Source: Patescibacteria group bacterium (GTDB taxonomy: Bacteria; Patescibacteriota; Minisyncoccia; Phycocordibacterales; Phycocordibacteraceae). From it: a DNA stretch of 64,000 bases. The number at the start of each line of letters is the position of its first letter. Within the stretch, counting starts at the first letter, position 1. The notes beneath the pieces are model-generated. The model made no database searches. It saw only the letters and a list, made by a program, of their open reading frames with translations, and had not been told where the DNA came from. The position numbers and the translations under genes were made by a program. Positions 8,000 through 63,504 of the stretch are shown here, piece by piece. The DNA is taken from the NCBI GenBank assembly GCA_038062175.1, contig JBBTXR010000001.1, forward strand, positions 9,420 to 73,419, in the 5' to 3' direction.

Positions 8000-8905
8000 A
8001 TGGATACTCGCTCAATGCTTCGCCAATTCCTCGAATATACCGAGATCGAGCGCGGCCGAGCGGTGAAAACCGTCGAAAACTACGAGCATTACCTCACTCG
8101 TTTCTTTGATCAGATGGAAATTAAGGAGATTTCCGACATTACCGAGGAGAAAATACGCGAATTCAGGCTCTGGCTGAATCGTCAGCCGGGCACGTCAGGT
8201 ACGATGAAGCGACGAACGCAGAACTATTACCTCATTGCGCTTCGTGCCTTTCTCAAATTCCTTCGGAAGCGCGGCATAGAAGGTCTAAATCCTGAGCGAA
8301 TCGAGCTTGCCAAGCTTCCTGAGCGTCAGATCGATCTTATTTCAAGCACTGAGCTTGAGCGATTGATTACTGCGACTGATGGTGTGGGAGAAAAAGCGTT
8401 ACGCGATAAGGCTATTCTTGAACTTCTCTTCTCTACCGGACTTCGTGTGTCTGAGCTTTGCGCCCTTAATTCAGATATCGATCTCTCGAGGGATGATCTG
8501 TCAGTGCGCGGTAAGGGAGAGAAGGTGCGGGTGGTATTTCTCTCAGAAGCAAGCAAACAGGCCGTGCGAGAGTACTTGAAGGTCAGGAAAGATATGGAGG
8601 AGGCGCTTTTTGTGAATATTCCCCGTGTCGGTACTGACTCCAAGAAGACCCCTACCCGCCTCACTCCTCGCGGTGTTCAGCTCACCATCAAGTACTACGC
8701 GACTAAGGCCGGCATTACTAAGAAGGTCACTCCGCACGTGCTCAGACACTCTTTTGCCACTGACCTCCTTTCAAACGGAGCTGATCTACGTTCGGTACAG
8801 GCGCTGCTTGGGCATGCGTCTATCAATACGACCCAGATCTATACGCATGTCACCGATGCCCATCTTCGGGAGGTACATAAGCGGTTTCATTCGAGACAGA
8901 AATAA
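8000..8905 (+). CDS. xerC: Tyrosine site-specific recombinase XerC/XerD
   Basis: 301-aa ORF with the C-terminal catalytic box (HVLRHSFATDLLSNGADLRSVQALLGHASINTTQIYTHV) and an N-terminal SAM-like domain. Confidence 0.85.
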   Translation: MDTRSMLRQFLEYTEIERGRAVKTVENYEHYLTRFFDQMEIKEISDITEEKIREFRLWLNRQPGTSGTMKRRTQNYYLIALRAFLKFLRKRGIEGLNPERIELAKLPERQIDLISSTELERLITATDGVGEKALRDKAILELLFSTGLRVSELCALNSDIDLSRDDLSVRGKGEKVRVVFLSEASKQAVREYLKVRKDMEEALFVNIPRVGTDSKKTPTRLTPRGVQLTIKYYATKAGITKKVTPHVLRHSFATDLLSNGADLRSVQALLGHASINTTQIYTHVTDAHLREVHKRFHSRQK

Positions 8906-56606: not shown

Positions 56607-56650
56607 GTATCTGCTACCTCAAAAGAACATAGCGCTGTCCTGCGACAGCG

Positions 56651-57523
56651 CTATGTTCTTTTATATGCCTCTCGTAACGCAACTACGTCGTCACTTACGT
56701 TCTTCAGCGTAGGAACGAGGTGGTCGTAGAGTATATCGATGAGTTTGAATGTCTCTTCGAAAGCAGTGCGAGATTGAGGGAGGCTATGGAGTGAGAAGAT
56801 GTAGATCTTTGTTCCTACACACTCAAATCCATACGAGCCAAACGAATCCATATATGAGGCCATGAATGCAGGATCCAGCACCGTGAGTGCCTCCACTTCC
56901 ATCTCGTGAGAGGTGTACACATCAAATTGGTCATTAAATGGTCCTTCAAGCCGAAGGATTCTTGTTCCATGAGGGCTCCAATCTCTAGCTCCACTCCAAC
57001 GTTTTGGTCGCACTAGCAGATCGAGCATGGGAACTGCGCACTCTACCTCCCATACGAGCATCTGATGATATGTCCTGTGCTTGTGGCTACCGGTGGTGTA
57101 GTGGAAGGTGAAGAAGCGTGTCGGACGACCTTCGTAGGTTCCTGAGAACACGTCGGCGAGTCTGCGACTGTGCCCGAATGAAAAGATCTGTCCGGTAACG
57201 GTATTCATGGCAGCGGATTCGCTGTACGCGAAGCCGTAGGATGCGGCAATCTCCTTATAAAATTGTTTCTGGACGACACGTCGCGCAAGTCCGTATGCAA
57301 TCAAAAAGGGTGCGATAGGTAACGAAAGTACGAGGACCACACCCGTTGCGTTGCTTACGAAGGTTTCTAGAGATCCTAGTGCGAATGCGGCTACGACGAG
57401 CCCTGCAATAGCACAGAGTTCAAAGACTATGGCGATAGTGGCGAGTACCTGTGTCCGTCTGCGGTGTGTCACCCACAGATGCGTCATAAGGGCATCCTCA
57501 ACGCTTTCTATGCGAGATTCCAT
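56651..57523 (-). CDS. Hypothetical membrane protein (2 N-terminal TM helices plus cytoplasmic domain) between fusA and tuf
   Basis: 290-aa ORF on the opposite strand to the ribosomal cluster. Confidence 0.5.
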   Translation of the reverse strand: MESRIESVEDALMTHLWVTHRRRTQVLATIAIVFELCAIAGLVVAAFALGSLETFVSNATGVVLVLSLPIAPFLIAYGLARRVVQKQFYKEIAASYGFAYSESAAMNTVTGQIFSFGHSRRLADVFSGTYEGRPTRFFTFHYTTGSHKHRTYHQMLVWEVECAVPMLDLLVRPKRWSGARDWSPHGTRILRLEGPFNDQFDVYTSHEMEVEALTVLDPAFMASYMDSFGSYGFECVGTKIYIFSLHSLPQSRTAFEETFKLIDILYDHLVPTLKNVSDDVVALREAYKRT

Positions 57524-57622
57524 GATTTCCTCACAGTACCTTGATTCATATGGACGACCTTCTCTTATGCACAGGATTTCTCATGCTATGCTCAGCCGCA
57601 GAACAGTAGGAGGAAGGTTTCA

Positions 57623-57859
57623 ATGGCAACCTATTTCTTCGAGACGATCACAGACGGACAGGCACTGAGATTCAATGATGATGACGTACTCGTCTTCGGG
57701 GCAGTCAACAATGATCGATTTCCCTTCAGCGAGGTCTGCATCTTGGCTCGACCGCGACTTCCAGCACCGCCACCCGTACTCGGCAAACGGCTCCTGATGA
57801 CGCAGACGGTGCTCCGCAGACCTGAACTGTGGCAGAAAAGGACACGAGGCGACCCCTAG
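57623..57859 (+). CDS. Small hypothetical protein with strong SD and its own terminator
   Basis: AGGAGGAAGG sits 5 nt upstream of the ATG. 78 aa. The stop is embedded in a GC hairpin terminator. Confidence 0.45.
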   Translation: MATYFFETITDGQALRFNDDDVLVFGAVNNDRFPFSEVCILARPRLPAPPPVLGKRLLMTQTVLRRPELWQKRTRGDP

Positions 57860-57880
57860 GGTCGCCTTTCCTTGACCTTT
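57848..57880 (+). terminator. Rho-independent terminator
   Basis: ggcgaccc-cta-gggtcgcc followed by tttccttgaccttt. Confidence 0.7.
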
Positions 57881-58078
57881 CATTTCACGGCCTGTATCTT
57901 TACCCCTAACGCGAGTACGGCGCTCTTTTTAGTATTCCTTCTCCATAGGGGACAGGGGTTTCTGAAAGGCGCTGCGCGGGGAAATCGCCCAACGCCTTGG
58001 TCGCCTGCCATTCTCTGAGGGGAAGCAGGCAGGCGCGGCAAAAAGTTATAACTTTAGCTACCAGTAATTTACGTACCT

Positions 58079-59312: not shown

Positions 59313-59678
59313 ATGGCAACCGCAACTAAGAAAGTATCCAAGAAGAAGGTCGCTGAGGCAGGTCCTGCCGCAGAGCCCAAGCTTCGCATCCGTGTGCGCG
59401 CCTACGAGCACAAGATTCTCGACCTTTCGGTGAAGCAGATCATGGATACGGCTAATCGCTTCGATGCGAAAATCGTCGGTCCGATCCCGCTCCCGACCGA
59501 GATCAAGCGCTGGACCGTGAACCGCTCCACGTTCGTGCACAAGGACGCACGCGAGCAGTTCGAGATGCGCATCCACAAGCGCCTCATCGACATCATGTCG
59601 CCGAACCCTAAGGTTATCGAGGCTCTCACGAACCTCAACCTTCCTTCAGGAGTCACGATTGATGTGAAGATGGCGTAA
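59313..59678 (+). CDS. rpsJ: 30S ribosomal protein S10
   Basis: S10 core (RIRVRAYEHKILD...KDAREQFEMRIHKRLIDI) with a Lys/Ala-rich N-terminal extension. Possible alternative TTG start at 59304. Confidence 0.9.
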   Translation: MATATKKVSKKKVAEAGPAAEPKLRIRVRAYEHKILDLSVKQIMDTANRFDAKIVGPIPLPTEIKRWTVNRSTFVHKDAREQFEMRIHKRLIDIMSPNPKVIEALTNLNLPSGVTIDVKMA

Positions 59679-59695
59679 GTCAAAAGATGCAAAGC

Positions 59696-59726
59696 AAAGC
59701 GCCCCGAAAGGGGCGTTTTGCTTTTG
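59696..59726 (+). terminator. Hairpin H1 of a conserved terminator-like repeat family (after rpsJ)
   Basis: aaagcgcccc-gaaa-ggggcgtttt followed by GCTTTTG. Shares the GGGGCGTTTTGCTTTT tail with H2-H4. Confidence 0.7.
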
Positions 59727-59764
59727 TCTGTCGCTAATGATTATCTATCGATAGGAGGTGTCTC

Positions 59765-60040
59765 ATGTTCTTGATCTATTTTTTATCTCCCCATGAAAGG
59801 TGGCGGCGATTCTGTGAAAGAAATCGTGAGTTCCAGCGGGCGCGTCGTAGATGGTTGCGGCAAACTCCTGGCACGCCAGAGGAGAGAGCTGCGGGCAGAG
59901 AACTGAGTCGAATTAGAAAGAAGCTTCACCGACTTGGGGCATCGCTCGGTATGGCAGAAGTCGCCACTGAGCTCCTGCTTCCGCGGGAGTTTCGTTCACG
60001 CGGCACGCCCCCGATTCCCAGGTGGATTCTTGCACGTTAG
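59765..60040 (+). CDS. Array ORF A: 91-aa Arg-rich hypothetical protein
   Basis: GGAGGTG SD 4 nt upstream of the ATG. Bounded by hairpins H1 and H2. Confidence 0.5.
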   Translation: MFLIYFLSPHERWRRFCERNREFQRARRRWLRQTPGTPEERAAGRELSRIRKKLHRLGASLGMAEVATELLLPREFRSRGTPPIPRWILAR

Positions 60041-60047
60041 TTAGCAA

Positions 60048-60078
60048 GGGCGCCTCGGAAACGGGGCGTTTTGCTTTT
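60048..60078 (+). terminator. Hairpin H2 of the repeat family
   Basis: gggcgcctcg-gaaa-cggggcg followed by TTTTGCTTTT. Confidence 0.7.
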
Positions 60079-60125
60079 ATATATTTATGTGTTATTATTG
60101 ACCTGAATTATTTGGAGGTCTTTAG

Positions 60126-60434
60126 ATGAGCACGTTTTGGGTTTCTGAAGCAGTGATCAAGGAGACGGTTCGGAAATACCAACTTCCCGAACACGAGGTC
60201 AGATGCCGGTTCATTCAGATTGATGGGTACCTGAAGGACGCGACCAGGTTGAGCGATGCAACGCTCAAGAGCACGATGTGGGACTATCGCCTCCGTGGAG
60301 ATCACTACCAGGCCTCACTTCTCTGGACGGTCTGGACCTGTAGAGCCTTGGGCTTCACGGAACAAGAGATGGTCGACCTGATCATCCCACTGACGGTCTA
60401 CCCAGCTGATGACCTGGTTCAAAGGGTCGCGTAG
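60126..60434 (+). CDS. Array ORF B: 102-aa hypothetical protein
   Basis: GGAGGT SD 6 nt upstream of the ATG. Bounded by H2 and H3. Confidence 0.5.
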   Translation: MSTFWVSEAVIKETVRKYQLPEHEVRCRFIQIDGYLKDATRLSDATLKSTMWDYRLRGDHYQASLLWTVWTCRALGFTEQEMVDLIIPLTVYPADDLVQRVA

Positions 60435-60452
60435 TCCCTCAAGATCAACGTG

Positions 60453-60485
60453 CGACGCCTCGAGCAATCGGGGCGTTTTGCTTTT
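60453..60485 (+). terminator. Hairpin H3 of the repeat family
   Basis: gcgacgcctcg-agcaat-cggggcg followed by TTTTGCTTTT. Confidence 0.7.
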
Positions 60486-60528
60486 ACCCATGCGCATGCG
60501 ATAGTCGCCACAGAAGAGGAGGTGATCC

Positions 60529-60927
60529 ATGACTGGATTCATCAAGACGCACGAGCGACTGTCAGCATTTGCGGAAGTGATCAAGCCGAGACATATCGCG
60601 GTTCCTTTCCACGCCTTCGGCAAGGCGGAGATCGACGAGAATGCAGGTCACCTCGTGAGTTTCTTCCAGGAGCAAGACGCATGGGTGCCGTTCGAAATGT
60701 CGGCCTTCAAGGAGTTTTGCACACGCTTCAGGCCGAATGGCAGTCCCATCTTCTACGGTCTTGTCGGTGACGGGTTCGATGAGGGTGATCCTACTATCCA
60801 TTACGATCCGCATCTCATCCGGCTTCTCGATGATGGTCGATTGATTGTGACCGACCGATTCATCCTCCGTTGTAGCGGCATGAGTTCGGATCGGATTAGC
60901 GGTCTGACGCGAGAAATTGCAGCCTGA
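60529..60927 (+). CDS. Array ORF C: 132-aa acidic hypothetical protein
   Basis: GGAGGTG SD 4 nt upstream of the ATG. Bounded by H3 and H4. Confidence 0.5.
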   Translation: MTGFIKTHERLSAFAEVIKPRHIAVPFHAFGKAEIDENAGHLVSFFQEQDAWVPFEMSAFKEFCTRFRPNGSPIFYGLVGDGFDEGDPTIHYDPHLIRLLDDGRLIVTDRFILRCSGMSSDRISGLTREIAA

Positions 60928-60934
60928 TCCTAAG

Positions 60935-60967
60935 CGACGCCCCGAGCAATCGGGGCGTTTTGCTTTT
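60935..60967 (+). terminator. Hairpin H4 of the repeat family
   Basis: gcgacgccccg-agcaat-cggggcg followed by TTTTGCTTTT. Near-identical to H3. Confidence 0.7.
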
Positions 60968-61023
60968 CTCTTCATGTGAAATGCGATATTCTCATCCTCT
61001 GTTCTTTCGAAAGGAGGTGATAT

Positions 61024-61406
61024 TCGTGAGCAGAAGACCAATCGGATCTCGTGTCCTGTGGGGTGAAGCTAGGAGTGCTGCACAACATCTCGATGCTGCG
61101 ATGGTTCAGTTTTACCCTGATCCTACAACGTATAAAGGATTTGACGGTAAGCTAGACGATTCCAGTCTTCCCCAAAAGAAGAACTTCGCGCGTTGGAAAC
61201 GTCCAAAGCGTAAGGATGGAACCCGTAAACGGGGAACTCAAGTTCGGCCTCTCGTCATTCGCGAAATCAGAAACGCGAAGGATGAGAAGGGAAGATCGGT
61301 GCGTGGGAGATTCGTCTCTCTTGCTGACTACGAGCAACGCGCTGCGAAATACCGTGAAGATGTGAAGAAATATTTTGAAGAAAACAAGAGGCGGTCGCGG
61401 AGATAG
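61024..61406 (+). CDS. Array ORF D: 127-aa Lys/Arg-rich hypothetical protein (GTG start)
   Basis: GGAGGTG SD 6 nt upstream of the GTG at 61024. The ORF-track ATG at 60960 lies inside hairpin H4 and lacks an SD. A GC hairpin (ggtcgcgg...ccgcgacc) overlaps the 3' end. Confidence 0.45.
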
Positions 61407-61418
61407 GTCCGCGACCGT

Positions 61419-61452
61419 AACGCCCTCGAGCAATCGAGGCGTTTTCTTTTCC
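61419..61452 (+). terminator. Hairpin H5 of the repeat family (compensatory variant)
   Basis: acgccctcg-agcaat-cgaggcgt followed by TTTTCTTTT. The stem keeps base pairing through paired substitutions relative to H3/H4. Confidence 0.65.
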
Positions 61453-61520: not shown

Positions 61521-61652
61521 GTGACGAAAAAGATCAAGAAAGAATTGAGCGCCGAGGAGCGCAGAGATTGGCGGGAAAACAGTCAGAATGCAGCGCCCAA
61601 ACCGCCGGTAGGGGTCCTCAAAGATCTCAAAGAGTCTAACCCTCGTGATTGA
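61521..61652 (+). CDS. Array ORF E: 43-aa basic peptide (GTG start)
   Basis: GGGGAG SD 5 nt upstream of the GTG. Followed by a distinct GC hairpin terminator. Not in the ORF track. Confidence 0.3.
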   Translation: MTKKIKKELSAEERRDWRENSQNAAPKPPVGVLKDLKESNPRD

Positions 61653-61661
61653 GTGCTCAGT

Positions 61662-61697
61662 GGCCGCCTCGCAAGGGCGGCCTCCATTTTATTCTTG
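61662..61697 (+). terminator. Rho-independent terminator after ORF E
   Basis: ggccgcc-tcgcaag-ggcggcc followed by tccattttattcttg. Confidence 0.65.
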
Positions 61698-61984: not shown

Positions 61985-62021
61985 GGGCTCCGCGATTTCT
62001 CGCGGAGCCCTTCTTGGTTTG
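61985..62021. terminator. Bidirectional terminator at the end of the antisense membrane-protein gene
   Basis: gggctccgcg-atttct-cgcggagccc 10-bp stem with T-rich flanks on both strands. Confidence 0.7.
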
Positions 62022-62063: not shown

Positions 62064-62678
62064 CTACATCGCGTCGAGAAGATCGTCTTCCGTGTTCCAG
62101 GCGCCGATATAGACGCGATCGAAGCCTCGAACGGCGAGAACGAACGGATCCTTGAGTGTATATTCGACGAGCACATACGCTCCGGCTGCTTCTGCCGCCC
62201 TGATCCTTCGATCGAAGCGCGCTGGCGGCTCGATGATCCAATCCTTTCGTGCCGCTGATAGGTGCAGCTGCCGCCAGCTCCAGGTGGTTCTCGGACCTTT
62301 CCGCTCCGCATAGATCCATAGGCAGAACGTTAGAATGCAGCCGATGGCGGGAGTGAGAAGGAGAGCCGCGTGTAGTTGCAGACCAGGCATCGAAAGACAG
62401 GCCAAGCCGGCAACAGTCATCGCGACGACGACGTAGAGATAGTTGTTCGAGTACTGCCGGCCGGTGTACCGCTCGATTATCCTCGGCACGAAGTAGAGTC
62501 TCGGTAGCCAGAGCAGGTAGTAGAGGGTCTGGAGCAAGGCTGGCAATCGGTCCTTGCGCTGATGTGCCTGCACGAGGTGCTTTGGAATAACCGGCACCCC
62601 TTGTGCACGCAGCTCGCTCTCAAGCTTGCTGCAGGTTCTTGCGCCCTTCTCGAAGGCGCGTACTGCATCCATCTTCAT
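62064..62678 (-). CDS. Hypothetical membrane protein, antisense to the ribosomal cluster
   Basis: Two or three TM helices (YLYVVVAMTVAGLACL, LLLTPAIGCILTFCLWIY). Start chosen at the Met preceded by AGAGGT SD (62678). The ORF-track maximal extent to 62996 would overlap rplC. Confidence 0.5.
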   Translation of the reverse strand: MKMDAVRAFEKGARTCSKLESELRAQGVPVIPKHLVQAHQRKDRLPALLQTLYYLLWLPRLYFVPRIIERYTGRQYSNNYLYVVVAMTVAGLACLSMPGLQLHAALLLTPAIGCILTFCLWIYAERKGPRTTWSWRQLHLSAARKDWIIEPPARFDRRIRAAEAAGAYVLVEYTLKDPFVLAVRGFDRVYIGAWNTEDDLLDAM

Positions 62679-62772: not shown

Positions 62773-62801
62773 TTGCATTGCCTGAAGGCTTCGTGTAGAG
62801 T
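62773..62801 (+). promoter_or_regulatory. Sigma-70-like promoter for rplC-rplD (TTGCAT-N17-TAGAGT) with a structured ~90-nt leader
   Basis: Same architecture as the rpsL promoter. Leader contains GC hairpins (cccctcgggg, ggccgggaagcccttcgggg) before the rplC ATG. Confidence 0.45.
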
Positions 62802-62892
62802 GCCCCTATCGCTACGTATCCCCTCGGGGAGACCAATGGCCGGGAAGCCCTTCGGGGACGAACGCGCTGTTGAGGCGCGCTTTATTTTTTTC

Positions 62893-63504
62893 ATGAAATT
62901 CCTACTCGCCAAGAAAGGTCGTATGACCCAGATCTTCGATACCGATGGTCGGGTCTTTGCTGGTACCGTCCTTACGACTGCTCCGATGACCGTCACCCAG
63001 GTGAAGACGGTTGAGTCTGACGGGTATGAGGCGGTTCAGGTTGGTTTTGGCGAGAAGAAGGAGAGTCGCGTGAATAAGGCCGTCCTTGGACACACCAAGG
63101 GTAAGGGCTTCCAGACCATCAAGGAGTTCCGCACCGAAGCAGGAGACCTTGCGGTAGGTTCTGAGGTAACCGCAGACACCTTCGCTGAGGGTGATGTGGT
63201 TGAAGTCTCGGGCACCGTGAAGGGTAGGGGCTTTGCCGGAGTGGTGAAGCGCCATGGTTTCCATGGTGGTCGTCGCTCGCATGGTCAGAAGCACTCTGAG
63301 CGTGAGCCAGGATCGATTGGTGGCGGTGGTCGTGCCGGTGGTCGCGTCGCTAAGGGTATGCGCATGGGTGGCCGCATGGGTGGTAACCGCATCACGGTAA
63401 CCAACCTCAAGGTGCTCAAGGTCGATGCAGCTCGCGGCGAGATCATCATCTCAGGAGCCGTTCCTGGCGCTCCTGGTTCACTCGTCGAGATCGTCTCGAA
63501 ATAA
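62893..63504 (+). CDS. rplC: 50S ribosomal protein L3
   Basis: L3 N-terminus (MKFLLAKKGRMTQIFD) and a Gly-rich C-terminal region. The ORF-track start at 62626 is a spurious upstream extension. Confidence 0.9.
   Translation: MKFLLAKKGRMTQIFDTDGRVFAGTVLTTAPMTVTQVKTVESDGYEAVQVGFGEKKESRVNKAVLGHTKGKGFQTIKEFRTEAGDLAVGSEVTADTFAEGDVVEVSGTVKGRGFAGVVKRHGFHGGRRSHGQKHSEREPGSIGGGGRAGGRVAKGMRMGGRMGGNRITVTNLKVLKVDAARGEIIISGAVPGAPGSLVEIVSK

Follow-up and report, generated by a model that had tools for sequence, protein, structure and literature searches.

In most bacteria, rpsJ and rplC are co-transcribed neighbours, and their adjacency is normally among the most stable in bacterial genomes. Phage morons are units of a promoter, an open reading frame (ORF) and a terminator that are inserted between conserved genes. 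The minimal mobile elements of Neisseria carry variable gene content between fixed conserved genes and have no mobility genes (Saunders & Snyder 2002; Snyder et al. 2007, as summarised in PMC3787668). Here we analyse a stretch of 64,000 nucleotides (nt) from a Patescibacteria group bacterium (GenBank assembly GCA_038062175.1, contig JBBTXR010000001.1, positions 9,420 to 73,419 of the forward strand), called the window throughout, in which the ribosomal-protein (r-protein) genes rpsJ and rplC are separated by the small genes A–E and F204, and in which related terminator-like hairpins, H1–H5, follow rpsJ, A, B, C and D. We consider it likely that these hairpins, together with a sixth copy after rplB (H6), are paralogous Rho-independent terminators residing in compact terminator-promoter modules, which would insulate the small genes of an island that splits the S10 operon. 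The hairpins themselves are ordinary textbook terminators; what is unusual is their arrangement. Specifically, the modules are conserved as strongly as r-protein genes while framing fast-evolving or replaced small proteins, and the module copies stay alike within one genome. We found no literature description of r-protein operon islands in bacteria of the candidate phyla radiation (CPR), or of paralogous terminators.

For comparison, 80 related loci (S10 identity 70-98%) were collected by a metagenome scan with S10, among which L124 is the closest metagenome relative, and closer relatives (the islands of L204, L207, L209, L211, L212 and L217) were reached by using L3 as the anchor. Three assemblies of the population are 99.9-100% identical across the region, and the exact S10 protein is shared with metagenomes of the Hainich aquifer (0.1 µm fraction of well H51) and with the metagenome-assembled genome GCA_964366495.1. 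The nearest named L3 proteins belong to 'Candidatus Paceibacterota'.

A local family of terminator-like hairpins

The original prediction had described five hairpins as copies of one element, and all five are found where it placed them (Table 1). They lie 6-19 nt past the stop codons of rpsJ, A, B, C and D, and all are co-oriented with the upstream gene. On direct reading, H1–H5 are built from the arms CGCCCCGA / TCGGGGCG, with G+C core stems of 7-11 bp and GNRA tetraloops, and are followed by T-rich tails, which read TTTTGCTTTT in H1–H4, TTTTCTTTTC in H5 and TTTTTCTTTT in H6. Predicted RNA folding gives -28.9 kcal/mol for H1 (z -7.3), -20.3 for H2 (z -5.1), -18.3 for H3, -22.7 for H4 and -13.3 for H5 (z -3.0), the z-scores of the five thus spanning -3.0 to -7.3. 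Judged by sequence, H1–H5 show every hallmark of Rho-independent (intrinsic) terminators, and they are predicted to terminate transcription.

The copies are not equally close to each other. H3 and H4 share 97% identity over 34 nt, and H3, H4 and H5 have in common the loop, the closing CGA/TCG and the unpaired flanks; in H1 and H2 the top of the stem is shorter and the loop reads GAAA, and what they have in common with H3–H5 is limited to the 3' arm and the tail. The proposed consensus CGACGCC[C/T]CGAGCAATCG[G/A]GGCG... consequently describes H3, H4 and H5 and does not extend to H1 and H2, while TTGCTT, proposed as a conserved feature of the tail, is present in H1–H4 and lost from H5. Across genomes, H1 is orthologous by position to the terminators that relatives carry after rpsJ and is detected by the terminator scan on both strands, and H4 is identical to the L209 rpsJ terminator across 31 nt. 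Of all copies, H5 is the weakest and has diverged most; its orthologs are the terminators after D in L211, L212 and L209. Additionally, the end of ORF D carries two tandem hairpins, a 10-bp hairpin at 61392-61417 followed by the weak H5.

The 16-mer GGGGCGTTTTGCTTTT has four exact occurrences in the window; with up to three mismatches there are six matches against 0.55 expected, a number reached by 0/100 shuffles. Repeat finding returned a 34-nt family (H2–H5) and a 20-nt family (H1–H4). Across the entire window, 43 terminator-like entries were catalogued, corresponding to about 25-30 distinct sites with diverse stems, and none of the window terminators outside the island contains the 16-mer. 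The enrichment of the 16-mer, the repeat families, the folding and the absence of the 16-mer from the other window terminators together establish that the hairpin family is real and local. An Rfam search (E<=1, 56-64 kb) returned only sub-threshold chance matches on the terminator hairpins, and a scan of viral contigs for CCYCGAGCAATCGRGGCGTTTT gave 0 matches.

The distribution of the copies also bears on whether a mobile palindromic element, of the REP/BIME or MITE kind, has been landing in intergenic regions. Imperfect palindromes of ~34 nt that occur in several copies and only between genes would be in keeping with such an element; yet, over the ~70 kb covered, the copies are confined to r-protein islands, with six crowded into ~10 kb while the remaining 59 kb of the window has none, and their common orientation relative to the upstream gene, their positional orthology across genomes and the lack of visible target-site duplications all speak against such an element, as does the lack of a transposase among the 20 large ORFs checked. 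We regard a mobile element as an extremely improbable source of the family.

It had further been claimed that paired substitutions keep the stem of H5 intact, so that the structure is under selection. The compensatory series is real: one pair changes from C-G (H4) through U.G (H2, H3) to U-A (H5), with H5 carrying in addition a bulged C and a tail from which the G is gone. As for selection on the structure, the first seven copies (H1–H6 and the L124 copy) gave no significant covariation, with one double-change pair and 209/500 shuffles scoring as high, whereas an alignment of 14 members from six genomes did. In the latter, 87% of the cells are paired, 9/14 pairs have changed on both sides, 0/500 shuffles reach the observed values, and the covariation score is 0.305, versus <=0.137 when the partners are slid. 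The supported helix pairs the tail TTTTGC with an upstream GCAAAA (in L211, for example, GGAA...TTCC); because the tail covaries with this upstream segment, pairing inside the hairpin accounts for its conservation at least in part.

The window copies were used to build a covariance model, which separates the family from its background, since members score 41-62 bits and every other terminator in 581 kb of relatives scores <=34 bits. Beside this, a terminator after the 2OG-oxygenase gene in the rplB/rpsS island (L121:8098-8142) reads GGCCCGGA-GCGA-TCCGGGCC + TCTTCTTTT, shares its GA-GCGA-TC top with the rpsJ terminator of L124/L205 and reaches 32.6 bits with the family model; it may be a distant family member.

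Conserved modules and an exchangeable slot

Each terminator would represent the upstream half of an intergenic module of 85-114 nt, which comprises the hairpin with its U-rich tail, a sigma-70-type promoter-like element that is best recognised by its -10 or extended -10, a short 5' untranslated region (5'UTR) and a strong Shine-Dalgarno sequence. We name the intergenic regions following H1–H5 IG1–IG5, so that IG3 precedes ORF C and IG4 precedes ORF D. The module before D has the order hairpin, (N)TCTTCA, TGCGnTAT[G/T]CT, CTCTGTTCTTT and ribosome-binding site, with a -10 candidate, TATTCT, at 60987-60992 within TGCGATATTCT. This D module recurs directly after rpsJ in L209, after a 630-amino-acid (aa) ORF in L211 and after a 162-aa ORF in L207, and in weaker form in L212 and in IG5 of the window. 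At the DNA level, IG4 is 79% identical to the rpsJ-D intergenic region of L209, 73% to its counterpart in L211 and 70% to that in L207, in comparison with 76-82% for rplC, 84-92% for rpsJ and ~55% for gene D. Between genomes, the module of terminator, promoter-like -10 and 5'UTR is about as conserved as r-protein genes (79% versus 76-85%). Similarity between modules runs 60-70 nt past the hairpin in IG3, IG4 and IG5 as well as in other genomes.

While the module is kept, its neighbours are exchanged. A slot that runs from the rpsJ terminator to the D module is filled by A, B and C in the window (A and B coming after the rpsJ terminator and ahead of the module that precedes C), by the C homolog C' in L212, by the 162-aa ORF in L207 and by the 630-aa ORF in L211, and is empty in L209; every occupied slot has a family member on each side. 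A second type of module, the C-type (hairpin + TG[C/G][G/C]ATAGT), stands ahead of the L212 homolog of C and, in L205/L124, ahead of a GNAT gene unrelated to it. The original prediction had suggested searching related genomes for the repeat beside different ORFs, and the module is found before C in the window and before the GNAT gene in L205/L124.

Within a genome, the copies share lineage-specific bases: CGCC[C/T]CGA occurs three times among the window copies, and CGTCCCGA twice among those of L212, which points to gene conversion or lineage-specific duplication. We propose that the family descended from the rpsJ terminator region, that its copies would have been propagated as genes were added between rpsJ and the residents C and D, and that copies within a genome may since have been kept alike by either of these two processes.

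The same observations could be read as a sign of a cassette system that recombines within the hairpin copies, with the terminator role secondary or combined; genes bounded by copies would be gained, lost or swapped by homologous recombination or gene conversion after DNA uptake or through a site-specific recombinase. Slot content that differs between genomes, inserts that always lie between two family members, one module before unrelated genes and within-genome paralogs that share lineage-specific bases are all consistent with it. Additionally, L124 homology continues through rpsJ, stops exactly at the terminator tail (59725, the final base of the H1 tail) and resumes at 62773, and the single terminator of L209 joins a 5' flank resembling that of H1 to an H4-identical hairpin and 3' flank, as from a deletion between copies. 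Other findings speak against it: there is no integrase in or beside the island and no recombinase at 56-64 kb of the window, and the only recombinase among the 20 large ORFs checked is an Xer-type tyrosine recombinase 51 kb away (8000-8905, 301 aa), which matches XerA/XerD models at ~250 bits and the integron-integrase model at 131 bits, against a cutoff of 265. Direct reading revealed neither attC core sites (GTTRRRY / RYYYAAC) nor a dif-like 11-6-11 layout, and the cassettes are not promoterless. Moreover, the C-D order is kept in L212, so that part of the array is vertically inherited, exchange via the conserved r-protein genes on either side would account for the varying content with no need of a special site, and no presence/absence variants exist among the three independent assemblies of the population. 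The alternative raised in the original prediction, that the repeats are recombination sites, is supported indirectly and lacks an integron integrase and attC features; recombination between the copies is suggested, but we judge a role of the copies as recombination substrates unlikely. An integron as such was rejected, there being no IntI, no attC cores and no promoterless cassettes.

Equally unlikely in our view is that the modules are the recombination handles of an integrase-free cassette array. The junctions fusA/tuf, rpsJ/rplC and rplB/rpsS would then be landing pads in Paceibacterota, at which small new or foreign genes would be captured between module copies, expressed immediately in an insulated manner, and shuffled or deleted by recombination between these copies. 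An array of this kind would explain why the modules show the same conservation as r-protein genes, whereas the genes between them are replaced or have diverged to 30-40% identity.

Promoter-like elements and the limits of the module reading

The strong promoters of this lineage have the form TTGCAT-N17-TA(T/G)AGT, as seen at rplC, where the promoter is kept across relatives, and at the str operon (52287), and in many relatives the T-run of a terminator abuts TTGCAT-17-TGTAGAGT. TTGCTT in the hairpin tail matches the local -35 hexamer TTGCAT at 5/6 positions. The pattern TTGCWT-N15-19-KATAKT has three occurrences in the window, with 0.09 expected; two of them are those of IG3 and IG4, in which GATAGT and GATATT follow TTGCTT after 16 and 19 nt, respectively, in agreement with the spacings originally reported.

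The two elements differ in how well their parts are kept. Before ORF C, an extended -10, TG[C/G][G/C]ATAGT, is present in three genomes (before C in the window, before the C homolog in L212 and before the GNAT gene in L205/L124), and TTGC[T/G]T lies 16 nt upstream of it in L212 as well as in the window. The hexamer that is conserved ahead of ORF D is TAT[G/T]CT, situated 2 nt downstream of GATATT and placing TTGCTT 21 nt away; TGCGnTAT[G/T]CT precedes D in five modules, and the sole register kept in all five is TTTTnT-17-TAT[G/T]CT. The proposal that the tail serves as the -35 of the next unit hence holds in part, being plausible for ORF C but lacking conservation ahead of ORF D, and it does not apply to the tail of H5, from which TTGCTT is missing.

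Junctions of 85-114 nt that join a terminator, conserved promoter-like elements and strong ribosome-binding sites make independent transcription units the best reading; in the proposal of compact terminator-promoter junctions, the inconsistent part is the -35. The modules would insulate genes A–E from the highly expressed upstream tuf-rpsJ unit and most likely make each small gene its own transcription unit. Internal promoters are likely present, and the hairpin tail may contribute to some of them.

The weak or inconsistent -35 elements, together with the weak H5 and with five ORFs that are co-oriented with tuf-rpsJ and separated by short spacers, would also suit a single polycistronic mRNA, which starts from tuf or from one island promoter and passes hairpins acting as partial terminators, attenuators or 3'-end stabilisers that grade expression from gene to gene, with no internal promoters. 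Such a transcript would have to pass H1, a very strong predicted terminator with a U-tract (-28.9 kcal/mol), whose strong counterparts after rpsJ are near-universal in island-bearing relatives. It would also leave aside the -10 or extended -10 blocks, which stand at fixed positions in orthologous modules and are conserved like coding DNA, and the enrichment of TTGCWT-N15-19-KATAKT. We think a single transcript of this kind quite improbable.

Several observations weigh against reading H1–H6 as paralogous terminators in promoter-bearing modules. H5 is weak, at -13.3 kcal/mol. The spacing between the TTGC-type hexamer and the extended -10 is 13 nt in the C-type module of L205/L124, versus 16 nt, and TTGCTT is absent from the orthologous pre-D modules of L207 and L211. 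A generic sigma-70 scan of the region gave 2 matches versus 4.1 in shuffles, none of them at the IG3 and IG4 elements. The repeat census covers the 64-kb window plus 5.7 kb, which is ~70 kb of this genome. Finally, hairpins with the core ACGCCCC...GGGGCGTTTTGCTTTT are found at >=120 loci of unrelated genomes, versus about a dozen expected by chance according to our estimate; this count comes from a one-genome-per-species scan with CGCC-N4-14-GGGGCGTTTTGCTTTT, a loose pattern that fits generic terminators. The matches listed come from Proteobacteria, Acidobacteriota, Bacteroidota, Firmicutes and others, and the CGAGCAATCG top was seen in none of them. The sequence ACGCCCC-loop-GGGGCGTTTTGCTTTT looks like a convergently favoured terminator sequence, and since this core arises independently in unrelated genomes, part of the likeness of H1/H2 to H3–H5 could be convergent. 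As a separate observation, the core hairpin in unrelated genomes is often a perfect bidirectional palindrome, AAAAGCAAAACGCCCC...GGGGCGTTTTGCTTTT.

Taken to its end, the recurrence of CGCC...GGGGCGTTTTGCTTTT hairpins at >=120 loci in unrelated phyla would mean that stem plus tail is a generic optimum of intrinsic terminators, which arose independently after each gene. Core recurrence cannot explain, however, the shared loops, the shared flanks and the downstream similarity of 60-70 nt, nor the near-identity of H3 and H4 and the fact that no other window terminator has this sequence. Convergence is already largely refuted for H3–H5, and we hold it to be very unlikely for the family as a whole. 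Paralogous terminators within terminator-promoter modules remain the reading that we prefer.

The island between rpsJ and rplC and its likeness to known systems

The gene order on the left is fusA, a 290-aa ORF (-), tuf-rpsJ, A, B, C, D and E, and on the right a possible 61-aa ORF, F204 (-) and rplC-rplD-rplW-rplB; past rplB follow the 2OG oxygenase, a DUF3298 gene (-), a 173-aa ORF (-) and rpsS onward. Spacing in relatives is variable at three junctions and tight at the others measured (Table 1), and the fusA/tuf and rplB/rpsS islands reach 3.5 kb. In L209, rpsG/fusA is also interrupted, by a pilin-like N_methyl gene. The island is not marked by any break in base composition.

Table 1 Positions of the hairpins, modules, genes and junctions; coordinates are those of the window unless a locus is named.
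Feature	Position	Strand	Description
rpsJ (ribosomal protein S10)	59313..59678	+	Pfam Ribosomal_S10; last gene of the tuf-rpsJ unit
H1, rpsJ terminator	59691..59725	+	core 59699-59716, extended stem 59691-59724, loop GAAA; near-perfect extended palindrome AAAGCAAAGCGCCCC-GAAA-GGGGCGTTTTGCTTT + tail
ORF A	59765..60040	+	91 aa, Arg-rich, GGAGG ribosome-binding site
H2, terminator after ORF A	60047..60078	+	stem-loop 60047-60072, GGGCGCCTCG / CGGGGCGTTT, loop GAAA, tail TTTTGCTTTT
ORF B	60126..60434	+	102 aa, GGAGG ribosome-binding site
H3, terminator after ORF B	60454..60485	+	hairpin 60454-60477, GACGCCTCGA-GCAA-TCGGGGCGTT + TTGCTTTT
Promoter-like element before ORF C	60478..60505	+	TTGCTT (in H3 tail)-16 nt-TGC-GATAGT (extended -10)
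ORF C	60529..60927	+	132 aa, island resident
H4, terminator after ORF C	60936..60967	+	hairpin 60936-60959, GACGCCCCGA-GCAA-TCGGGGCGTT + TTGCTTTT
Conserved upstream module of D	60968..61025	+	(N)TCTTCAT, TGCGATATTCT 60982-60992, CTCTGTTCTTTC 60997-61008, ribosome-binding site AAGGAGGTGAT
ORF D	61026..61406	+	126 aa, basic, GTG start
Second hairpin	61392..61417	listed on -	10 bp, CGGTCGCGGA...TCCGCGACCG; spans the ORF D stop codon, directly before H5
H5, terminator after ORF D	61419..61451	+	hairpin 61419-61443, AACGCC(C)TCGA-GCAA-TCGAGGCGTT + TTCTTTTC
ORF E	61521..61652	+	43 aa, C-terminal motif VG[VI]L[KR][DE]L
ORF E terminator	61662..61690	+	GGCCGCC...GGCGGCC + T-rich tail; outside the H family; counterpart after the L204 E homolog
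Bidirectional terminator	61985..62010	both	GGGCTCCGCGA-TTTC-TCGCGGAGCCC at the F204 3' end
F204	62064..62678	-	204 aa, predicted membrane protein, island resident; likewise called as 204 aa in L121
Island right border	62773..62892	+	rplC promoter TTGCAT-17-TAGAGT 62773-62801, then ~90-nt leader
H6, sixth copy after rplB	L121:7150-7180		just outside the window; AAAAGCGCCCC-TC-GGGGCGTTTTTCTTTT
rpsJ/rplC spacing			30-3389 nt in 53 relatives, median 744; 36/53 >300 nt
fusA/tuf spacing	56607-58078		variable in relatives
rplB/rpsS spacing	L121:7150-9630		variable in relatives
tuf/rpsJ spacing			tight; 3/73 relatives >300 nt
rplC/rplD, rplD/rplW, rplW/rplB, rpsS/rplV and rplV/rpsC spacing			tight; none >300 nt

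Relatives with an island nearly always have a strong, often palindromic terminator after rpsJ. Given these terminators and the promoter and leader that rplC has of its own, tuf-rpsJ and rplC-rplB would form separate units, with accessory genes gathering in the gap that divides them. The rplC leader (62802-62892, with the rplC ATG at 62893) is conserved and structured, containing CGCTACGTA, a covarying hairpin, an invariant GACCAATGG and a terminator-like hairpin (62863-62879) with a T-run, which stands directly before the start codon with no Shine-Dalgarno sequence. It is also present in L124-L140, L164, L196, L199 and L204-L212, has no Rfam match, and is a candidate autoregulatory leader or attenuator for r-proteins (possibly L4 or L3).

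All ORFs A–E have GGAGG-type ribosome-binding sites, and in every ORF the annotated frame has the best codon score. The preference is clear for B (+0.13 versus -0.77 and -0.50 in the other frames), C and E, and weak for A (-0.13, yet the best of three frames) and D. The profile libraries applied, namely Pfam, PHROG, PADLOC and NCBIfam, gave no match for A–E or F204. Homologs in the islands of relatives identify C, D, E and F204 as old island residents. Specifically, ORF C is 42% identical to a 144-aa ORF of L212 (E 2e-32), and F204 has a homolog, L212_231m, with 27% identity (E 2e-10). ORF D belongs to a family of small, fast-diverging proteins with the motif W[KR]x3RKDGTR...RNxKGxF, which is found in L209, L211, L212, L217 and probably L207 (blastp E 2e-4 for L217_131 and 0.005 for L209_116). 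ORF E is similar to L204_47 (z 4.7, 0/500 shuffles) and, by alignment, to L211_48, both of which share its C-terminal motif. Word-index protein searches with C and D returned only the queries, a result that understated their kinship, as synteny-guided comparison yielded homologs. An AF2 model of ORF C built without an alignment reached a pLDDT of 34 and is unusable.

Within the relatives and libraries searched, A and B are found only in this genome. ORF A had no tblastn match in the 80 S10-anchored loci and no blastp match among the island ORFs of the L3-anchored relatives, and an exhaustive HMMER search with ORF B returned only itself and repeat-motif matches in giant repeat proteins. Residues 60-84 of ORF B, YQASLLWTVWTCRALGFTEQEMVD, resemble a ~30-aa unit in a 2733-aa 'Decapeptide repeat' protein, in which the unit has >=23 pairwise BLAST matches, and in two other large repeat proteins. 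Homology to these proteins was rejected, the match being a 24-aa recurring motif, and the segment is probably a small helical motif instead. Tandem duplication of whole units was likewise rejected, with no protein or DNA similarity among A–E or the unit bodies.

The islands of relatives contain GNAT and MOSC genes (L124/L205), HicAB (L158) and PaaX-like regulators (L133, L138, L173). The HicB/HicA-like toxin-antitoxin pair, judged by eye, lies in the rpsJ-rplC island at L158:3060-3539 and suggests that the islands also gather addiction- or defence-type genes. In other Hainich relatives, the islands at L138:5252-6475, L133:6628-7325 and L173:4332-5005 hold 2-3 copies of a 42-61 nt palindrome, ATGTTCGTTA-N21-TAACGAACAT, with an asymmetric centre that is inverted from one copy to another. 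These islands also hold repeated TTTCTTGCAT...GGTAGAG promoter-like boxes beside a conserved ~200-aa protein with a PaaX_C/Cas2-like motif (by eye), and the palindromes and this protein may be an operator-regulator pair. At the right end of the island, the 10-nt stem GGGCTCCGCG of the F204-end terminator recurs at the equivalent place in L124:7092-7120 and L205:2465-2493, next to different genes. Relatives carry a small conserved minus-strand ORF (27-58 aa, e.g. M..KWVT.DPF) between the F204-type hairpin and the rplC promoter, where the window has F204 instead.

In this CPR lineage, then, the rpsJ-rplC junction is a hotspot of gene turnover, and two other fixed cluster junctions are alike. If the modules do promote capture and shuffling, they would provide organisms with tiny genomes with a simple, recombinase-free route to new genes, and would amount to natural portable insulated expression units. 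In practice, r-protein markers that are concatenated for the phylogeny and binning of CPR bacteria do not always lie contiguously.

Among known systems, the hairpins resemble intrinsic terminators in their G+C stem, tetraloop, U-rich tail and position just past a stop codon, and H1 and the rpsJ terminators of relatives, as extended palindromes GCAAAA...TTTTGC, resemble bidirectional terminators with an A-tract and a U-tract. They differ in that neighbouring terminators are near-identical paralogs, kept alike within the genome, and in that their U-tract contains an interrupting GC that pairs with the upstream extension and looks like the local -35. REP/BIME and MITE sequences differ from the family, of which no dispersed or opposite-orientation copies exist within ~70 kb. 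As in integron arrays, small ORFs stand in a unidirectional row with related imperfect palindromes between them, and content varies among relatives; here, however, there is no IntI or attI, the palindromes have U-tracts and lack attC cores and an extrahelical-base architecture, and the cassettes have promoter-like elements and ribosome-binding sites of their own. As in phage morons, small ORFs are bracketed by a promoter-like element and a terminator between genes that are adjacent elsewhere, whereas the present units are chromosomal, lie in an r-protein cluster, are bracketed by modules that are copies of each other, and gave no PHROG match and an empty motif scan of viral contigs. The minimal mobile elements of Neisseria are also similar, since the content of the island differs among close relatives between the same conserved flanks (L124, L204, L207, L209, L211, L212 and L217) and no mobility genes are present. 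Homologous recombination in the flanks is the obvious mechanism for such elements, and exchange by transformation and homologous recombination in the island flanks may operate here as well. What sets this locus apart from those elements is that its flanks are rpsJ and rplC and that repeated terminator-promoter modules lie inside it.

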